A stretch of 64,000 bases of DNA from Minisyncoccota bacterium (GTDB lineage: Bacteria; Patescibacteriota; Minisyncoccia; Phycocordibacterales; Phycocordibacteraceae): the NCBI GenBank assembly GCA_018062765.1, contig JAGORR010000001.1, positions 217,249 through 281,248 of the forward strand, read 5' to 3'. Made by a program: the position numbers and the translations under genes. Below are positions 20,349-31,991 of the stretch, piece by piece. A model generated the notes under the pieces. The model saw only the letters and a program-made list of their open reading frames with translations, was not told where the DNA came from and made no database searches. How positions within the stretch are numbered: the first letter of the stretch is position 1; every line of letters begins with the position of its first letter.

Positions 20349-20620
20349 GGCACCAAGTATAGATGCTCAGTAGGAAGTAGTAAAGTTAACTTTACGTGTA
20401 CGCTAGCGAGACTAGGAGTTTCTCTCACAAAATACTTTCGCCGTCGCAAAGACTAGGATTCTGTCACGGTTTGCGGCTAGATTCGTCCAAGCATTCCGAA
20501 TCTAGCTCGCAACCCCGACCCGGACTCGTCGCTTAACCCTGCCCCGCAGGCGCGACTCCGTCTTTCGAATCCTAGTCTCCCAGACAAGCGAAAGACCGCC
20601 TTTCGGCGGCTTTCGTCTTG

Positions 20621-20691
20621 CTGCGAGACTAGGATTCGAACCTAGATAAACGGATTCAGAGTCCGTTGTCCTACCATTAGACGATCTCGCA
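20621..20691 (-). tRNA. tRNA-Gln (anticodon CUG)
   Basis: Minus-strand sequence TGCGAGA-TC-GTCT-AATGGTA-GGAC-A-ACGGA-CTCTGAA-TCCGT-TTAT-CTAGG-TTCGAAT-CCTAG-TCTCGCA-G. U1-A72 pair is typical of bacterial tRNA-Gln. No encoded CCA. A terminator hairpin lies downstream (20590-20618). Confidence 0.85.
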
Positions 20692-25772: not shown

Positions 25773-26270
25773 ATGGGTGATGAAAATGTAATCCGTCCCG
25801 CCTTCGGGAAGGGCGGGTTCAAGCCGAAGGTGGTCGCGAAGGACCCTGAGCCGGTGCGTACGCTCCGGCCGGAATCGAAGTCTGCCGCGAAGACGCCTGA
25901 ACGGGTAATCGATGAGGCGGAGGAATACGAGGAGCCGACCGAAGAGGAGCTGGCTTCTCCCGAATTCCTGCGCGACTTCAAGTTCTGCTTCATGAACATG
26001 GAGATCATGCGTTCGTTCAATGAGCGGGGTACCGAACTGACCGATTTCGTCATCGACGTCCTCGAGTATCCGGGTTTCCGGCAGGAATCGCTCGCGCTCC
26101 GGCGAGGAGTGTTCCGAGAGCACTCTCTGGAGCAGATTTGCGAACTCCTCCTTTGCTCTGGGAAGCCGGAATGGCAAGCGAAGCCTGCCTGGTACGGCGC
26201 CATCTACATCGAGGGGCATATGAGGCAGCGCAAGCTCATCGGCAGCCTGCCGAAGGAGACCTCGGATTAA
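25773..26270 (+). CDS. hypothetical protein (acidic, charged N-terminus)
   Basis: 165 aa; GGGGA RBS; terminator hairpin at about 26296-26325. Confidence 0.4.
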   Translation: MGDENVIRPAFGKGGFKPKVVAKDPEPVRTLRPESKSAAKTPERVIDEAEEYEEPTEEELASPEFLRDFKFCFMNMEIMRSFNERGTELTDFVIDVLEYPGFRQESLALRRGVFREHSLEQICELLLCSGKPEWQAKPAWYGAIYIEGHMRQRKLIGSLPKETSD

Positions 26271-26404
26271 GAGGGGTAGTGTGTGGAAGATAAAGGACCC
26301 TGGGGTTTTGCCCCGGGGTTTTTCGTATGTAGCTGGTCCAGGACGCACCCCTCGACATGGCTACTTAGAGAGGTAGGGGTCGATTTCTAAAAAGAAGTTT
26401 TTGT

Positions 26405-27091
26405 GTGATTATTCAATCAATGGCCCTGGGTAATATAACGAGTCAAGTAATCTCAAAACAACGTGTTTCCGACCATGGTGAGGTACTAACGGCTGAGCGA
26501 GAGGTAAACGCCATGCTCGACATGGTGCGCCATGAGACCGAACGCATTGACTCCCGTTTCCTCGAGCCAGCTTGCGGCACAGGCAATTTCCTAGCTCCAG
26601 TGTACGAAAAAAAGCTTGCCGTCATTAAAAAGCGCTACGGTAAAAGCCAGCTAGAGTTTGAACGCTACGCCGTTACAGGCACAGGCTCCATCTATGGAGT
26701 GGACATTCTTGAGGACAACATAAAACTCTGCCGCAAGCGCCTGTTCGACATCTTTAACGAGCTCTACACGGCGCTCTACAAGAAAAGAAGCAAGGATGCT
26801 GTCCGCAGTGCAGTCCGCTTTGTTCTCAACAGAAACATTTTGTGGGGTGATGCACTTTCTCTTAAAACGGTGTCAAAACAGCCGATGCCCATCGTGTTCT
26901 CCGAGTGGTCTATGGTACGCGGTAGCATGATGAAAAGGCGCGACTTCTCGTTTGAGGAGCTTATGCCCGACAGCGCGGCAAAAGTGAGCCTGTTCAAGCA
27001 AGCAGAAATATCCGATCTTGGGACACCAGCGTTCATACCGACCCCTGTAAAAGAGTACCCACTTACTCATTTCCTTTCACTACACGTATGA
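26405..27091 (+). CDS. Eco57I/gamma-class N6-adenine DNA methyltransferase homolog lacking catalytic motif IV (SAM-binding pseudo-methyltransferase?)
   Basis: Motif X-like HGEVLTAEREV and a canonical motif I FLEPACGTGNFL. The expected (D/N)PP(Y/F) position reads NRNILWGD. 228 aa; may start at the internal ATG at 26420. Confidence 0.55.
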   Translation: MIIQSMALGNITSQVISKQRVSDHGEVLTAEREVNAMLDMVRHETERIDSRFLEPACGTGNFLAPVYEKKLAVIKKRYGKSQLEFERYAVTGTGSIYGVDILEDNIKLCRKRLFDIFNELYTALYKKRSKDAVRSAVRFVLNRNILWGDALSLKTVSKQPMPIVFSEWSMVRGSMMKRRDFSFEELMPDSAAKVSLFKQAEISDLGTPAFIPTPVKEYPLTHFLSLHV

Positions 27092-28578
27092 AAGTTCCGA
27101 CGAGCTACAACCCCGATGTTCTTACGTGTCTTGCCAACCTTAGCAACGACGAGGTGTTCACACCGCCAGCGTTGGTGAACCAAATACTCGACACCTTGCC
27201 GTCCGAAATTTGGCGAGACAAAACTGCCACTTTTCTTGATCCAGTCTCTAAGACAGGTGTTTTTCTGCGCGAAATAGTCCGCCGCCTCAATGATGGTCTG
27301 GTCAAAGAAATCCCCGACGCACAAGCACGGCTCGATCATATTTACACCAAGCAGGTGTTCGGCATCGCCATCACCGAGCTCACGGCACTGCTCTCGCGAC
27401 GCTCGCTTTACTGCTCGAAAGACGCAAGCGGCAAGTATTCAGTAAGTGAGGCGTTCAAAAGTGCTGACGGCAATGTACGCTTCGAGCGCACCGAGCATAG
27501 CTGGAAAGACGGTAAATGTGCCTTCTGTGGTGCAGGCCAGGCCGAGTATGATCGCGCCGAGGCGCTTGAGACCCATGCTTACCAGTTTATTCACACCGAC
27601 AACCCTAGTACACTGTTTAATAATATGAAGTTTGATGTAATTGTCGGCAATCCACCATATCAGTTGAGCGATGCTGGCGATAGCACGGGCGCATCGCCGA
27701 TATATCAACTCTTTGTTGAGCAAGCAAAGAAACTTCAACCACGCTTTTTGACAATGATTATTCCGTCGCGTTGGTTTGCAGGAGGGAAAGGGCTTGAGGG
27801 TTTTCGTGAAGATATGTTGAACGACGGACGAATCTCACATTTGGTGGACCATCCAATCGCGTCAGATGTTTTCCCCGGTATCAAATTGAATGGTGGTGCT
27901 TGCTATTTCCTATGGAATCGCGAATATCAGGGAGAATGCGAAGTAACCATAAAGATGAGCGGCATGGAGGATACAACAAAACGGCGACTCAATCAGTTCG
28001 ATACATTTGTTCGTTTCAACAAGGCAATCTCAATTTTGGATAAGGTGCAGTCGAAAAAGTATTCATCGTTGAGTGAGCTGGTATCACGACAAAAGCCGTT
28101 TGGACTCCGTACTTTTGAGCGTCCAACAGGAAAGGGTACTGTAAAGCTATACGCGAACAAAACCATTGGAAAGATTGAAAAGTCTGCAATAACCGTCGGG
28201 TTCGATATGTTGGATTCGTGGAAAGTATTTATTTCGATGGGCTATGGTGAAGGTGGCGAGGCGCGCGAATATCCGCGCATGATTTTGGGTAAACCCATCG
28301 TTGCTGCCCCGGGAATTGCATGTACAGAGACATATATTGTTGTTGGGAAATATAAGACAGAAAAAGAGGCAGAAAATCTTGCTAAATATTTACAAACGAA
28401 GTTCTTGCGATTCTTGGTCGCTCTTCGTAAAAACACGCAACACGTTACTAGAGATCGGTTTTTATTTGTGCCCGATTTGCCAATGAAAGAAGAATGGACA
28501 GACGAAAAGCTTAACAAGCTTTTCCGTCTGACAAAAGAGGAGATCGAATTCATTGACATGATCGTTCGTCCCATATAG
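27088..28578 (+). CDS. N6-adenine DNA methyltransferase, gamma class (Eco57I family)
   Basis: Motif X DEVFTPPALV, motif I region LDPVSKTGVFL (non-canonical), motif IV VIVGNPPYQ; 496 aa; start overlaps the upstream stop (ATGA). Confidence 0.8.
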   Translation: MKVPTSYNPDVLTCLANLSNDEVFTPPALVNQILDTLPSEIWRDKTATFLDPVSKTGVFLREIVRRLNDGLVKEIPDAQARLDHIYTKQVFGIAITELTALLSRRSLYCSKDASGKYSVSEAFKSADGNVRFERTEHSWKDGKCAFCGAGQAEYDRAEALETHAYQFIHTDNPSTLFNNMKFDVIVGNPPYQLSDAGDSTGASPIYQLFVEQAKKLQPRFLTMIIPSRWFAGGKGLEGFREDMLNDGRISHLVDHPIASDVFPGIKLNGGACYFLWNREYQGECEVTIKMSGMEDTTKRRLNQFDTFVRFNKAISILDKVQSKKYSSLSELVSRQKPFGLRTFERPTGKGTVKLYANKTIGKIEKSAITVGFDMLDSWKVFISMGYGEGGEAREYPRMILGKPIVAAPGIACTETYIVVGKYKTEKEAENLAKYLQTKFLRFLVALRKNTQHVTRDRFLFVPDLPMKEEWTDEKLNKLFRLTKEEIEFIDMIVRPI

Positions 28579-28580
28579 CT

Positions 28581-31094
28581 ATGGCCGATTTTTTTCCGCC
28601 ACGGCCGGAGGCAAAGCCTACTATCTACGCCTACAAGCTCAAAGGTGTGGAAACGCATGCTCATCTCCTCAAGGTGGGCTACACGACGCGCGATGCGCAA
28701 AGCCGCATTGCCGAACAGCTCACCACCGCGCGTTTGCAATACGAAATTGTTTTTGAAGAACCGGCTATGCGTGCCGATGGTTCGACATTTACAGATACCG
28801 ACGTGCATCGCCACTTGCGCGGAAAGCGCATCACGAATCCGGAAGGAGAGTGGTTTGAGTGTGGAGTGAAAGACGTGCGAGCAGCGTACGTTGCCATACG
28901 AGAGGGTGTGTTCAACGAAGAAAACCGCACACAAACATTCGGAATGCGCCCAGAGCAAGCCGATGCTGTGGTAAAAACCGCCGCGTATTTTACCGAGGCG
29001 CATGCTGACGGCAAGCAAACACCGCATTTTTTATGGAATGCCAAAATGCGCTTCGGGAAAACATTCACCACGTACCAGCTCGCCAAAAAGATGGGATGGA
29101 GGAGGGTGTTAGTGCTCACCTTTAAGCCCGCCGTGCACAATTCCTGGCACGAGGATTTGATGAACCATGTAGATTTTGAGGGATGGCAGTTTGTCTCGCG
29201 ACGGGGGAATACGCTCAATCATGCTGACATTGATGAAAAGAAACCATTTGTCGTATTTGGTTCGTTCCAGGATTTTCTCGGAAAAAACAGCGCAGGCGGG
29301 ATAAAAGCAAAGAATGAGTGGGTACACGAGACAACATGGGATGCTGTCGTCTTTGATGAATACCACTATGGTGCGTGGCGCGAGAGCGCGAAGGATTTGT
29401 TTGTCGGTGAGGAAAAAGACGTACGCAAGGACGAAGAGGGTGAGGCGTTGGAGTACTTTGACGAGCGCGCAGTGCCGATAAAGACCGGCGCGTATCTCTA
29501 CCTTTCGGGTACCCCATTTCGGGCTATTGCGAGCGGAGAATTTATCGAAGAGCAGATTTTCAACTGGACGTACAGTGACGAACAGCGGGCAAAAGAAGAG
29601 TGGGACAGTGCGAAGGGACCCAACCCATATGCGTCGTTGCCACGGATGGTGATGCTCACCTATCAGTTACCTGATGCTATACGTGAAGTGGCGATGGGTG
29701 GGGAGTTCAATCAGTTTGATTTGAGCCAGTTTTTTGCTGCAGAAGGAAAGGGCAAGAGCGCGAAATTTTTGTATAAAGACGAAGTGCAAAAGTGGCTGGA
29801 TTTGATTCGCGGTGCGTTTGCTGAAACTACCGTAGACAATTTGAAGCTGGGAGCGAAGAAGCCTGCGTTGCCGTTTTCTGACACGCGGCTTTTGAATGTG
29901 CTATCGCACACGTTTTGGTTTTTGCCGAGTGTAGCGGCCTGTCATGCTATGGCGAATTTGCTCAAGCAACGACAGAACAAGTTTTTTAACGAGTACGAGG
30001 TGATTGTGGCAGCGGGTACGGCGGCGGGAATTGGCGTGGCGGCGCTTGAGCCTGTGCTGAGGAAGATGGGCGAGCCCTTGAAGACGCGCACAATTACGCT
30101 TTCGTGCGGCAAACTGACGACGGGTGTATCCGTGAAGCCATGGACAGGTATTTTTATGCTGCGCAATGTAGCGAGCCCCGAGACATATTTTCAGGCGGCT
30201 TTTCGCGTGCAGACACCGTGGACTGTGCCGAATCCGGAGGGCAACGCGCCAAATCGTGAAGAAATCATCAAGCAGGAATGCTATGTTTTCGATTTTGCTC
30301 CGGATCGCGCTTTGCGACAGATTGCCGAGTATAGTTCTAGACTCAATTTGGATGATTCGGTCAGTCCCGAGAAAAAGGTGGAGGAGTTTATTCACTTCTT
30401 GCCGGTCTTGGCCTATGACGGAAGCGCGATGAATCAGATAGACGCGGCGGGAATTTTGGATATGGCGATGAGCGGGACCACTGCCACGTTGCTTGCGCGG
30501 CGTTGGGAGAGTGCGCTTTTGGTGAATGTCGACAACTATACTCTGGCGCGCTTGATGAACAGTGATGAAGCGATGCAGGCATTGATGAGTATTGAAGGCT
30601 TTCGTGCTCTGAATCAAGATATTGAGACTATCATCAACAAGTCCGGTGTGGTGGAGAAACTGAAAAAAGAAGCGAACGATCGGACGTTGACGAAGAAAGA
30701 AACAGAGTCATTGAGCGACGCCGAAAAAGAATTGAAGGGCAAGCGTAAGCAGGTGCAGGAAAAGCTCATCAAATTTGCAACTCGCATTCCGGTGTTTATG
30801 TATCTCACCGACTACCGCGAGCATACTTTGAAGGACGTAATCAATGAGCTTGAGCCGGACTTGTTTAAACGCGTTACCGGTCTTACTAAAAAGGACTTCG
30901 AGCTCTTGGTGAGCTTAGGTGTATTCAACGATTCGTTGATGAACGACGCGGTTTACAAATTCCGTCGATATGAGGATGCGAGTTTGGCGTACACCGGCAT
31001 AAACAGGCACGAAGGGGAGAATGTTGGTCTTTTTAGCACAGTCCTTTCTGTAAAAGAATACGACCAAACATTCATAAATACTCCAGAAGAGTAG
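28581..31094 (+). CDS. GIY-YIG (T5orf172-like) nuclease domain fused to an SF2 (SNF2/ResIII-like) helicase
   Basis: N-terminus TIYAYKLKGVETHAHLLKVGYTTRD...EGEWFE. Helicase motifs: Q-like TFGMRPEQADAV, I NAKMRFGKTFT, II VVFDEYHYG, III LSGTPF, V LTTGVSV, VI QAAFRVQTP. 837 aa. Confidence 0.6.
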   Translation: MADFFPPRPEAKPTIYAYKLKGVETHAHLLKVGYTTRDAQSRIAEQLTTARLQYEIVFEEPAMRADGSTFTDTDVHRHLRGKRITNPEGEWFECGVKDVRAAYVAIREGVFNEENRTQTFGMRPEQADAVVKTAAYFTEAHADGKQTPHFLWNAKMRFGKTFTTYQLAKKMGWRRVLVLTFKPAVHNSWHEDLMNHVDFEGWQFVSRRGNTLNHADIDEKKPFVVFGSFQDFLGKNSAGGIKAKNEWVHETTWDAVVFDEYHYGAWRESAKDLFVGEEKDVRKDEEGEALEYFDERAVPIKTGAYLYLSGTPFRAIASGEFIEEQIFNWTYSDEQRAKEEWDSAKGPNPYASLPRMVMLTYQLPDAIREVAMGGEFNQFDLSQFFAAEGKGKSAKFLYKDEVQKWLDLIRGAFAETTVDNLKLGAKKPALPFSDTRLLNVLSHTFWFLPSVAACHAMANLLKQRQNKFFNEYEVIVAAGTAAGIGVAALEPVLRKMGEPLKTRTITLSCGKLTTGVSVKPWTGIFMLRNVASPETYFQAAFRVQTPWTVPNPEGNAPNREEIIKQECYVFDFAPDRALRQIAEYSSRLNLDDSVSPEKKVEEFIHFLPVLAYDGSAMNQIDAAGILDMAMSGTTATLLARRWESALLVNVDNYTLARLMNSDEAMQALMSIEGFRALNQDIETIINKSGVVEKLKKEANDRTLTKKETESLSDAEKELKGKRKQVQEKLIKFATRIPVFMYLTDYREHTLKDVINELEPDLFKRVTGLTKKDFELLVSLGVFNDSLMNDAVYKFRRYEDASLAYTGINRHEGENVGLFSTVLSVKEYDQTFINTPEE

Positions 31095-31103
31095 TAAAAA
31101 TCT

Positions 31104-31991
31104 ATGGCACTTTTTCAATCAAAAAACGATAAGGTTACACAGGTCGGTATAGACCTGTCGCAATTTAGAAACGAGGCTGCCCTACGAGATTTTTTTGCTG
31201 GAAATCTTGAGGAACTTTTAGGACTTCGATTTCTTGCGAATGAATACAGAACCACAGATGGGCGTATAGACACCTTGGCAATTGATGAGGTGGGTACTCC
31301 GGTAATAATTGAGTACAAATGGGATGAGAACGATGCTATTCTCCCGCAAGGCTTGTCCTACATGGCTTGGCTAAAAGACAATAAACGTTTATACGATTTG
31401 CTCGTATCAGATAGACTAGGGAAAGATATCAAAGTGTTTTGGGACATTCCGCGTCTCATTCTTGTAGCACAGCGCTTTGATCGTCGCACGCTCGCTGCCG
31501 CCGGAGAAGCGAAAAATAGTGTTGAACTCATTAAATATACACCTTACGACTCGGGCATATTACATCTTGAAACAGTTTACGGTTCTGAAAAAGTAAGAAC
31601 AGTTTCAGAAACAGTAGCTAAATTGTCATCAAAAGGTGTCAAATATTCTCTCGACCATCATTTAAATAGGGTAAACGAGGATGTTAAGCAGATGTTCTAC
31701 GCTCTTCAAGCAGAAATTCTTAAATGGACAAACGTAGACGAGAGGATCGATCAAAAAGTAGGGATAACGTATCGTACGACCAAGAGTTTCGTCCGTTTCG
31801 AGTTCGGTAAGAGCTATGTGAATGTTTTGGTACGAGACCCACGCTACGATCACAAAATTGACCCGAAAGGTCTATTGAAGGATGTGTCCTCGTTCGGCTG
31901 GGGTTATAAGGGGGTTGCTAAATTGAAATCGAAAGAGGATGTACAGGATGTTCTTGAGTTAGTGCGGGCATCGTACGAATCTACCCTATAA
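31104..31991 (+). CDS. PD-(D/E)xK (NucS/DUF91-like) nuclease domain plus a DUF5655-like C-terminal domain protein
   Basis: GRIDTLAIDEVGTPVIIEYKWDE fits a D...(E/D)xK core. C-terminal region resembles DUF5655. 295 aa. Confidence 0.45.
   Translation: MALFQSKNDKVTQVGIDLSQFRNEAALRDFFAGNLEELLGLRFLANEYRTTDGRIDTLAIDEVGTPVIIEYKWDENDAILPQGLSYMAWLKDNKRLYDLLVSDRLGKDIKVFWDIPRLILVAQRFDRRTLAAAGEAKNSVELIKYTPYDSGILHLETVYGSEKVRTVSETVAKLSSKGVKYSLDHHLNRVNEDVKQMFYALQAEILKWTNVDERIDQKVGITYRTTKSFVRFEFGKSYVNVLVRDPRYDHKIDPKGLLKDVSSFGWGYKGVAKLKSKEDVQDVLELVRASYESTL

Follow-up and report, generated by a model that had tools for sequence, protein, structure and literature searches.

A DrdVI-type restriction-modification operon from a Minisyncoccota bacterium and the distribution of methyltransferase motifs between its first two genes

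We analysed a 64,000-nucleotide stretch of contig JAGORR010000001.1 (positions 217,249 to 281,248; assembly GCA_018062765.1) from a Minisyncoccota bacterium, referred to here as the window. Two adjacent genes for methyltransferase-like proteins, A (26420..27091) and B (27088..28578), are followed there by a third gene, C (28581..31094), for a protein with nuclease and helicase domains, all on the + strand. Together, A, B and C (26420-31094) very probably constitute an intact DrdVI-type split-methylase restriction-modification (R-M) system. The best explanation of the whole is probably a split methylase, in which A and B make up a single two-polypeptide N6-methyladenine (m6A) enzyme, with A as the S-adenosylmethionine (SAM) half and B as the catalytic and recognition half. 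From comparison of the sequences, we also lean towards the specific division of labour between the two proteins that is set out below. The system is already catalogued, and the window adds a member in a candidate-phyla-radiation bacterium.

When plasmids were searched by tblastn, a match was obtained to pDrdVI (NZ_CP031164) of Deinococcus wulumuqiensis NEB 479, where homologues of all three genes are found. A is 40% identical over 212 residues (E = 4e-51) to M1.DrdVI, a 212-residue "DNA methyltransferase", B is 48% identical over 520 aligned positions (E = 1e-179) to the Eco57I-domain protein M2.DrdVI, and C is 57% identical over 848 aligned positions to the DEAD/DEAH helicase protein DrdVI. 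The window genes lie in one operon in the order M1-M2-R, which is also the gene order of DrdVI; MaeIV from Methanococcus aeolicus is likewise among the closest known systems. The distribution of motifs is likewise the same: M1.DrdVI has FLEPACGSGNFL and no NPPY, M2.DrdVI has FLDPCTKSGVFL together with GNPPYQ, and the restriction (R) subunit combines a GIY-YIG-type domain with a helicase. These identities and the shared gene order make the window system a further member of a catalogued family, which was described by New England Biolabs as "split methylase" Type IIG (PMC6430315, PMC10113651). In E. coli, clones containing M1 and M2 from DrdVI or from MaeIV produce methylation at a defined site, GCAGCC (m6A) for M1-2.DrdVI and GCACY for M1-M2.MaeIV, and the methylation in these two homologous systems is on one strand of a short asymmetric site (PMC6430315, PMC10113651).

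The REBASE class of the family is Type IIG-like, and its layout resembles Type ISP or Type III. Compared to DrdVI, the window system is found in another host, a Candidatus Pacebacteria metagenome-assembled genome (MAG), and has a PDC-S18-like gene, D, added downstream. The presumed target recognition domain (TRD) in B has diverged from that of M2.DrdVI, so the recognition site is probably different. The initial annotation, made from the DNA sequence of the window, had described only the pair of methyltransferase genes. The pair is real, but the three-gene ATP-dependent system that it forms with C, already catalogued as the DrdVI family, had been missed.

Motif content of the A and B proteins

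Residue numbers in A were counted from the ATG at 26420, where its database entry begins, giving a protein of 223 residues; an alternative GTG start lies at 26405. A begins with a canonical SAM-binding N-lobe of the kind found in gamma-class N6-adenine methyltransferases and continues with an FSEW hairpin specific to the family and a C-terminal tail. Motifs IV-VIII and a TRD are absent, and the sequence contains no [NDS]PP[YFW]. Motif X reads HGEVLT (residues 19-24). The SAM-binding loop, initially described as a textbook example, is indeed canonical: motif I, FLEPACGTGNFL (26558..26593, residues 47-58), is invariant save at position 54 in all 81 A-family sequences used for the motif counts. 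Motif II, YGVDILEDN (26693..26719, residues 92-100), contains the acidic residue D95, which is Asp in 79 and Glu in two of the same sequences. Motif III, NILWGDAL (26834..26857, residues 139-146), corresponds to strand beta-3. The initial annotation had found NRNILWGD standing where motif IV should be; however, this stretch is motif III, and in single-chain relatives NPPY comes later. After motif III, A has a segment of its own, PIVFSEWSMVRGSMMKRRDF (26888..26947, residues 157-176), in which F160, W163, K172, R173 and D175 are invariant. This family-specific PIVFSEWS...KRRDF sequence forms a beta-hairpin (residues 159-177) in the AlphaFold2 model. In Pfam, A gave only sub-threshold methyltransferase matches, which were confined to its first half.

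More than 8000 homologues of A were found at E ≤0.001, with lengths of about 222-227 residues. Among the best 120 listed, nearly all had 216-252 residues and were strongly conserved up to the C-terminus, and a library clustered at 50% identity contained 780 A clusters at E ≤1e-30, mostly of 210-240 residues. An NPPY-like motif was present in 0/80 of the homologues checked for it. This family-wide conservation of length and sequence bears out the initial view that the pair does not reflect simple gene decay. If A were what is left of a longer methyltransferase gene after a frameshift or decay, it would stop, as it does, where the full enzyme would run into NPPY, and fused full-length relatives do exist. 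Nevertheless, given the conservation of the family, the lack of NPPY in all 80 homologues and the overlap of the A stop with the B start, such an origin is barely credible, and the frameshift that the initial annotation had named as the observation that would overturn its proposal is rejected. Searches with A and with B each gave at least 8000 matches, spanning many phyla, plasmids and some phage contigs. A-type proteins 44-50% identical to A occur on two human-gut phage contigs (MT835565.1, 26451-27131; PV036449.1, 15476-16024), indicating that the module also moves with phage genomes.

B has 496 residues and matches Pfam Eco57I (E = 5e-38). The AlphaFold2 model of B had a predicted local distance difference test score (pLDDT) of 76 and a predicted template modelling score (pTM) of 0.78, and its best Foldseek matches were CamA, BrxX/PglX, DrdV and LlaBIII, all of which are single-chain gamma-class m6A enzymes. 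We divided B into an N-terminal lobe, denoted N' (27088..27612, residues 1-175), a catalytic half (27613..27897, residues 176-270) and the C-terminal region presumed to be the TRD (27898..28575, residues 271-496). The catalytic half contains a perfect motif IV in the sequence FDVIVGNPPYQ (27631-27663, residues 182-192), and N' has an atypical motif I, FLDPVSKTGVFL (residues 49-60), in which Lys replaces the first Gly of the loop, both as initially noted. Motif X is present in N' as well (DEVFTPP, residues 21-27), as had also been observed for the two proteins. In the motif II stretch of N', FGIAITE (residues 91-97), Ala takes the place of the acidic residue. Sequence conservation in B is lowest in the TRD, with a mean of 0.53-0.56 versus 0.77-0.79 elsewhere.

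The cofactor motifs of N' are non-canonical throughout the family. In 61 B sequences, K55, G57 and NPPY are each present in 61/61, while the acidic position of motif II is Ala in 55/61 and Asp or Glu in 0/61. The invariant Lys in the Gly-loop of N' and the absence of the motif II acid are new in this analysis, as are the natural single chains that lack N' and the location of N' on the helicase protein of other systems, both described below. The reciprocal motif pattern of A and B is a property of the whole family and is not peculiar to the copy in the window. Pairwise alignment of the two proteins, suggested in the initial annotation as a check on their paralogy, showed 26% identity by BLASTP (E = 0.012). 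Comparison of the N-lobes by hhalign matched A 18-106 to B 19-105 with a probability of 95.6% (E = 1.2e-8), from which we conclude that the N-terminal lobes of A and B are paralogous.

N' also contains an insertion (B residues ~109-165, 27412-27582) with invariant C109, C144, C147 and H137, including a CxxC at 144-147. This combination of C-x2-C with further Cys and His residues may represent a small zinc-binding element. The insertion was modelled with low to moderate AlphaFold2 confidence and co-varies with A.

Gene linkage and modular architectures among relatives

An alignment of A was used to search one genome per species, giving 80 loci, which were spread over many phyla of bacteria and included one archaeal MAG. 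Where downstream DNA was available, A was nearly always followed by a B and then a C homologue, except at a few loci damaged by insertion sequences (IS) or frameshifts. In a set of metagenome loci seeded with B, A was found upstream of B on the same strand in 76/76 informative loci; four further loci had <160 nt of upstream sequence and were counted as uninformative. The called A and B open reading frames (ORFs) mostly overlap in both sets, with called starts that overstate the size of the overlap. A is thus a conserved, obligatory partner of B. The two-subunit arrangement proposed at the outset is upheld by this linkage and by the naming of the homologues as M1 and M2 of a split methylase.

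Evolutionary distances and co-variation were analysed for 128 A-B pairs, using Spearman correlations on pairwise distances. For A, the correlation was r = 0.61 with N' and r = 0.57 with the N' insertion, compared to r = 0.28 with the catalytic half (Cat) and r = 0.02-0.07 with the TRD. The correlation of N' with Cat of its own protein was only 0.29. A thus tracks N', whereas N' tracks Cat weakly, placing an evolutionary seam within gene B, at the N'|Cat junction where other architectures are split. The TRD had the highest mean pairwise distance in B (0.56-0.59), which fits varied specificities. In a mutual-information scan with average product correction, 91 of the top 100 A-B pairs fell in N' and two in the TRD. 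We discounted this co-variation as evidence for contacts, since the top pairs include the overlapping codons at the end of A and the start of B, A and N' share their ancestry as a block, and the TRD is shuffled.

For comparison of the relatives, we defined four modules: A, the canonical SAM lobe; N' (B 1-175); Cat-TRD (B 176-496, from FDVIVGNPPYQ); and Nuc-Hel, corresponding to C. The PADLOC models PDLC03375 and PDLC03626 (a 348-position "MTase_II" and a 1359-position "Type IIG", the latter of which matches C too) match B from residue 176-180 onward only, already hinting at the division between N' and Cat-TRD. In the window and in DrdVI, the modules are arranged as A / N'-Cat / Nuc-Hel. A second architecture, A / Hel-N'-Cat, is found on Enterococcus and Lactococcus plasmids, where Hel-N'-Cat is one protein of 1462 residues and N' reads ILEINSKTGLY and VIAKT. 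In a third, on an Arthrobacter plasmid, the order is A / Hel-N' / Cat, with a Cat protein of 344 residues that starts with MTKKFDVVIGNPPY. Variants of the third architecture, arranged as Cat / Hel-N', are found on a Treponema plasmid, where Cat has 344 residues from (K)FD..IGNPPY, and on a Bifidobacterium plasmid, where the Cat gene abuts IS256 and has lost its NPPY start. In Arthrobacter, Treponema and Bifidobacterium, N' forms the C-terminus of the helicase and stops ~60-70 residues past its motif II (II'), without a motif III, so that in Arthrobacter the small A-like protein is the only one with a motif III.

In the fourth architecture, the A-type lobe is fused to FDV(I/V)(I/V)GNPPY(Q/H)-TRD, giving the single chains P0307, P0308, P0315, P0333, P0341 and P0350. 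The A-type lobes of these proteins are 38-61% identical to A, and there is neither a separate A gene nor an N'-type lobe. They contain NI..GD (motif III), followed ~15-95 residues on by FDVIIGNPPYQ. A C homologue (50% identical) lies downstream of P0308, while at three other single-chain loci no helicase was found in the recovered flanking DNA. Downstream of P0350, there is a 226-residue protein without a Pfam match (locus L092, 8668-9348), which may be an unrecognised Type II endonuclease partner.

An A-type lobe, either free or fused to Cat, is present in every assessable architecture, with a distant analogue in its place in Pediococcus and Bifidobacterium. N' without an A-type lobe was not seen among these architectures, except in IS-disrupted remnants, such as E. 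faecalis pTEF3. N' can be separated from Cat and attached to the helicase. We considered the possibility that N' occurs only with the helicase, but this rule is weakened by P0308 and its C homologue, although the C homologue is cut off by the end of the P0308 contig, and its missing C-terminus may contain an N'. Overall, the comparison provides a testable model, in which the canonical SAM lobe is always present and the degenerate lobe accompanies the catalytic half in some systems and the helicase in others.

The Pediococcus and Bifidobacterium proteins belong to a distant clade of small N-lobe-only proteins of 306-328 residues (Pediococcus pRS5, locus L088, 2188-3108; Bifidobacterium longum p1, locus L091, 6747-7733), with the motifs AEVFTP, LEITCGEAP(F/Y), YGFE(W/Y) and (Q)MDGL. 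They adjoin helicase-N'-NPPY genes, replacing A, which they resemble only at the limit of detection (E = 2e-4 and 0.32). Free SAM lobes may consequently be a more general arrangement. Remnants disrupted by IS256 or IS1216 were seen in E. faecalis V583 pTEF3 (L089), where the B-type gene remains without A or C, and in B. longum (L090/L091), where IS256 lies between a small M-like gene and the NPPY gene.

Proposed division of labour between A and B

In the split methylase that we favour, B would provide the catalytic NPPY half of a Rossmann fold and the DNA-recognition domain, while A would supply the SAM-binding half (motifs X, I, II and III) in trans, presumably as the only canonical one in the system. 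A would dock on the NPPY strand of B during methylation, and neither protein would be active alone. Since methyl transfer needs a SAM pocket beside the NPPY loop, beta-1 and motif I of A would have to pack on beta-4 of B; in the single-chain forms, the A-type beta-1 and motif I would pack on beta-4 in cis. Having lost the Gly-rich loop and the ribose-binding acid, N' would no longer be a cofactor site, and this degenerate paralogue of A may act instead as a structural or coupling module that joins the methylase to the translocase. C, in turn, would be an ATP-dependent translocase fused to a GIY-YIG-type (T5orf172) nuclease. If the SAM half does act in trans, the family would provide a natural example of an adenine methyltransferase with two components. 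This would bear on the balance between modification and cleavage in ATP-dependent restriction enzymes, and might be useful for the design of split, targetable m6A methyltransferases.

Several observations weigh against this division of labour. N' is the best-conserved portion of B. It retains the canonical motif X (DEVFTPP) as well as D51, G57 and F59, and has Glu or Asp at position +3 of motif II in 61/61 sequences (E97 in B). Given these conserved features, N' may still bind SAM or another ligand. M.TaqI functions with an Ala-His-Gly loop, so the loss of one Gly is no proof that N' is inactive. In the AlphaFold2 model of B alone, beta-1 (49-54) and beta-2 (90-94) of N' are formed alongside the NPPY strand beta-4 (184-187), which suggests that N', rather than A, may be on the cofactor side in B. 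The model of A was of moderate confidence (pLDDT of 76), and beta-1 was not formed. The co-variation of A and N', as noted above, is confounded by their shared ancestry and the overlapping frames. Finally, our literature search found no study in which M1 or M2 had been tested alone, nor one on the mechanism of the DrdVI split.

These points lead to the chief rival, in which B is a self-sufficient methyltransferase whose N' binds SAM non-canonically and A is an accessory SAM-binding sensor or allosteric regulator. A could then gate restriction versus modification according to the SAM supply, or stimulate B as DNMT3L does DNMT3A. The folding of B alone and the conservation of N' are as expected from such an arrangement, and A, with all of the SAM-binding motifs and no catalytic motif, is what a pure cofactor-binding module would look like. 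However, no B without A was found in the 76 informative loci, and the canonical acid is missing from N' in every sequence. In the validated M2.DrdVI, motif II' reads GIGITQ, with no acid at either the canonical site or position +3, which is Gln. Furthermore, the N' lobes attached to helicases end after motif II', without a motif III, and the natural A-NPPY fusions do without N' altogether, one of them with a nuclease-helicase partner. Sequence alone cannot separate the two explanations, but we consider a self-sufficient B the less probable, while giving it real weight. The initial proposal of a catalytically dead paralogue that provides SAM sensing or target recognition fares correspondingly: SAM sensing is possible, though not the best reading, while A is unlikely to take part in target recognition.

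As a specificity subunit, A might contact DNA through its basic KRRD hairpin and conserved tail. Specificity modules vary, however, whereas A is uniformly conserved, and its divergence is untied to that of the TRD, as seen both in the distances and in the two TRD pairs among the 100 strongest co-varying ones; we regard this role as quite improbable. Slightly less probable still is A as an independent methyltransferase with SEW in place of NPP, modifying the second strand or another substrate. PIVFSEWS is the most conserved segment past motif III, and lies on a beta-strand like motif IV. In the single-chain relatives, however, FSEW co-occurs with a downstream NPPY, so FSEW is not the equivalent of motif IV and we rejected it as a substitute. 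In addition, the ~65 residues after motif III in A are too few to accommodate beta-5 to beta-7 or a TRD, and a single motif has been assigned to each of M1-2.DrdVI and M1-M2.MaeIV. Independent activity of this kind is therefore very improbable.

An elaboration of the split methylase is also conceivable, in which the system is a three-lobe device whose NPPY-TRD module pairs either with SAM-loaded A or with the cofactor-free N' tied to the translocase-nuclease. We consider this rather unlikely, and it is similarly doubtful that such an exchange of lobes acts as a switch between modification and restriction. If true, it would represent a way of deciding between self and non-self that has not been described for any R-M class, and a natural Rossmann fold completed in trans with a decoy half kept.

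Related systems and the surrounding locus

Neither A nor B by itself has the canonical motif set of a complete gamma-class enzyme; the full set of motifs is obtained by combining them. A single Rossmann-fold DNA methyltransferase formed from two polypeptides, as proposed here, is also found in M.AquI alpha/beta and in the engineered split M.HhaI and M.SssI. In M.AquI and the engineered split cytosine-5 methyltransferases, each half is inactive alone. These are simple bisections of cytosine-5 enzymes, whereas here the enzyme belongs to the gamma class of N6-adenine methyltransferases, and B still carries a degenerate version of the half that it lacks. METTL3-METTL14 and DNMT3A-DNMT3L are likewise paralogous methyltransferase folds with functions divided between the partners. 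In those pairs, however, SAM binding and catalysis are retained together in one subunit and lost from its partner, while here the SAM-binding and catalytic motifs are on separate polypeptides. The "split DNA methyltransferases" of PMC4335053 were considered and found to be a different family.

Like the window system, Type ISP enzymes (LlaGI, LlaBIII) unite a nuclease and a superfamily 2 (SF2) translocase with a gamma-class m6A methyltransferase and a single TRD. Both A and B match the methyltransferase domain of LlaBIII in structure, and in the Enterococcus and Lactococcus relatives the helicase, methylase and TRD are joined in one polypeptide of ~1460 residues. Type ISP enzymes, however, are single polypeptides with an Mrr-type nuclease and a self-contained methyltransferase, whereas the window system consists of three proteins, with a T5orf172/GIY-YIG-like nuclease and a separate SAM-binding lobe. 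It does not belong to Type ISP, which it matches in the methyltransferase fold alone. A sequence search of the PDB gave nothing useful for A and no match for B or the 1462-residue Enterococcus fusion, and returned no LlaGI or LlaBIII chain. The resemblance to Type III systems, which have a beta-class Mod and a Res with PD-(D/E)XK, is limited to the mod-then-res order and the ResIII helicase; the gamma-class motif order (X-I-...-IV-TRD), the Pfam Eco57I match and the T5orf172 nuclease place the window system outside this type. The DnmA-YeeB-YeeC (OspHL35III-like) systems similarly combine an m6A methyltransferase, a helicase and a T5orf172/GIY-YIG protein in defence islands, but their methyltransferase is a single chain of the MmeI family, the helicase and T5orf172 are on separate proteins, and there is no M1-type subunit.

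The + strand between 26.4 and 32.0 kb holds four closely packed genes, A, B, C and D. The TGA stop of A shares bases with the ATG start of B in the sequence ATGA, and gaps of 2 nt and 9 nt separate B from C and C from D, respectively. A terminator-like hairpin with a T-run (26293..26323, + strand; 14-bp stem, -23.2 kcal/mol, z = -3.87 versus shuffles) forms the 5' boundary of the operon, between A and an upstream hypothetical ORF (25773-26270). It was not among the results of a consensus terminator scan of the window. The GC content falls from ~0.56 in the flanks to 0.42-0.50 over 27-32 kb, in keeping with acquired DNA. The same DNA is also present in the Candidatus Pacebacteria MAG GCA_017991435.1. 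The only tRNA in the window, tRNA-Gln(CTG) (20620-20691, - strand), is located ~6 kb upstream of the R-M island.

C, the homologue of the DrdVI restriction subunit, has 837 residues. At its N-terminus is a T5orf172 (GIY-YIG-like) nuclease domain (Pfam, residues 16-103), followed from residue 121 by an SF2 ResIII helicase/translocase with GKT and DEYH motifs. The product of D (31104..31991, + strand; 295 residues) consists of a NucS-like PD-(D/E)XK N-terminal region and DUF5655, and matches the PADLOC candidate defence family PDC-S18 (E = 1.7e-61). The GC content of D, 0.42, is the minimum for the window, and a D-like match was found at 1/80 of the A-seeded loci. D is outside the conserved set and is probably an independent defence gene that has become attached to the operon.

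In many related loci, guest genes are found between A, B and C, including Bro-N, a YhcG/DUF1016 PDDEXK nuclease, PDDEXK_3 and Fic (L006, 5657-6556; L043, 3354-4592; L057, 9697-10209; L072, 11345-12436; L056, 13688-16180). Similar passenger genes are often seen within Type I R-M operons. In some loci, A-B-C is followed by a GmrSD Type IV enzyme.

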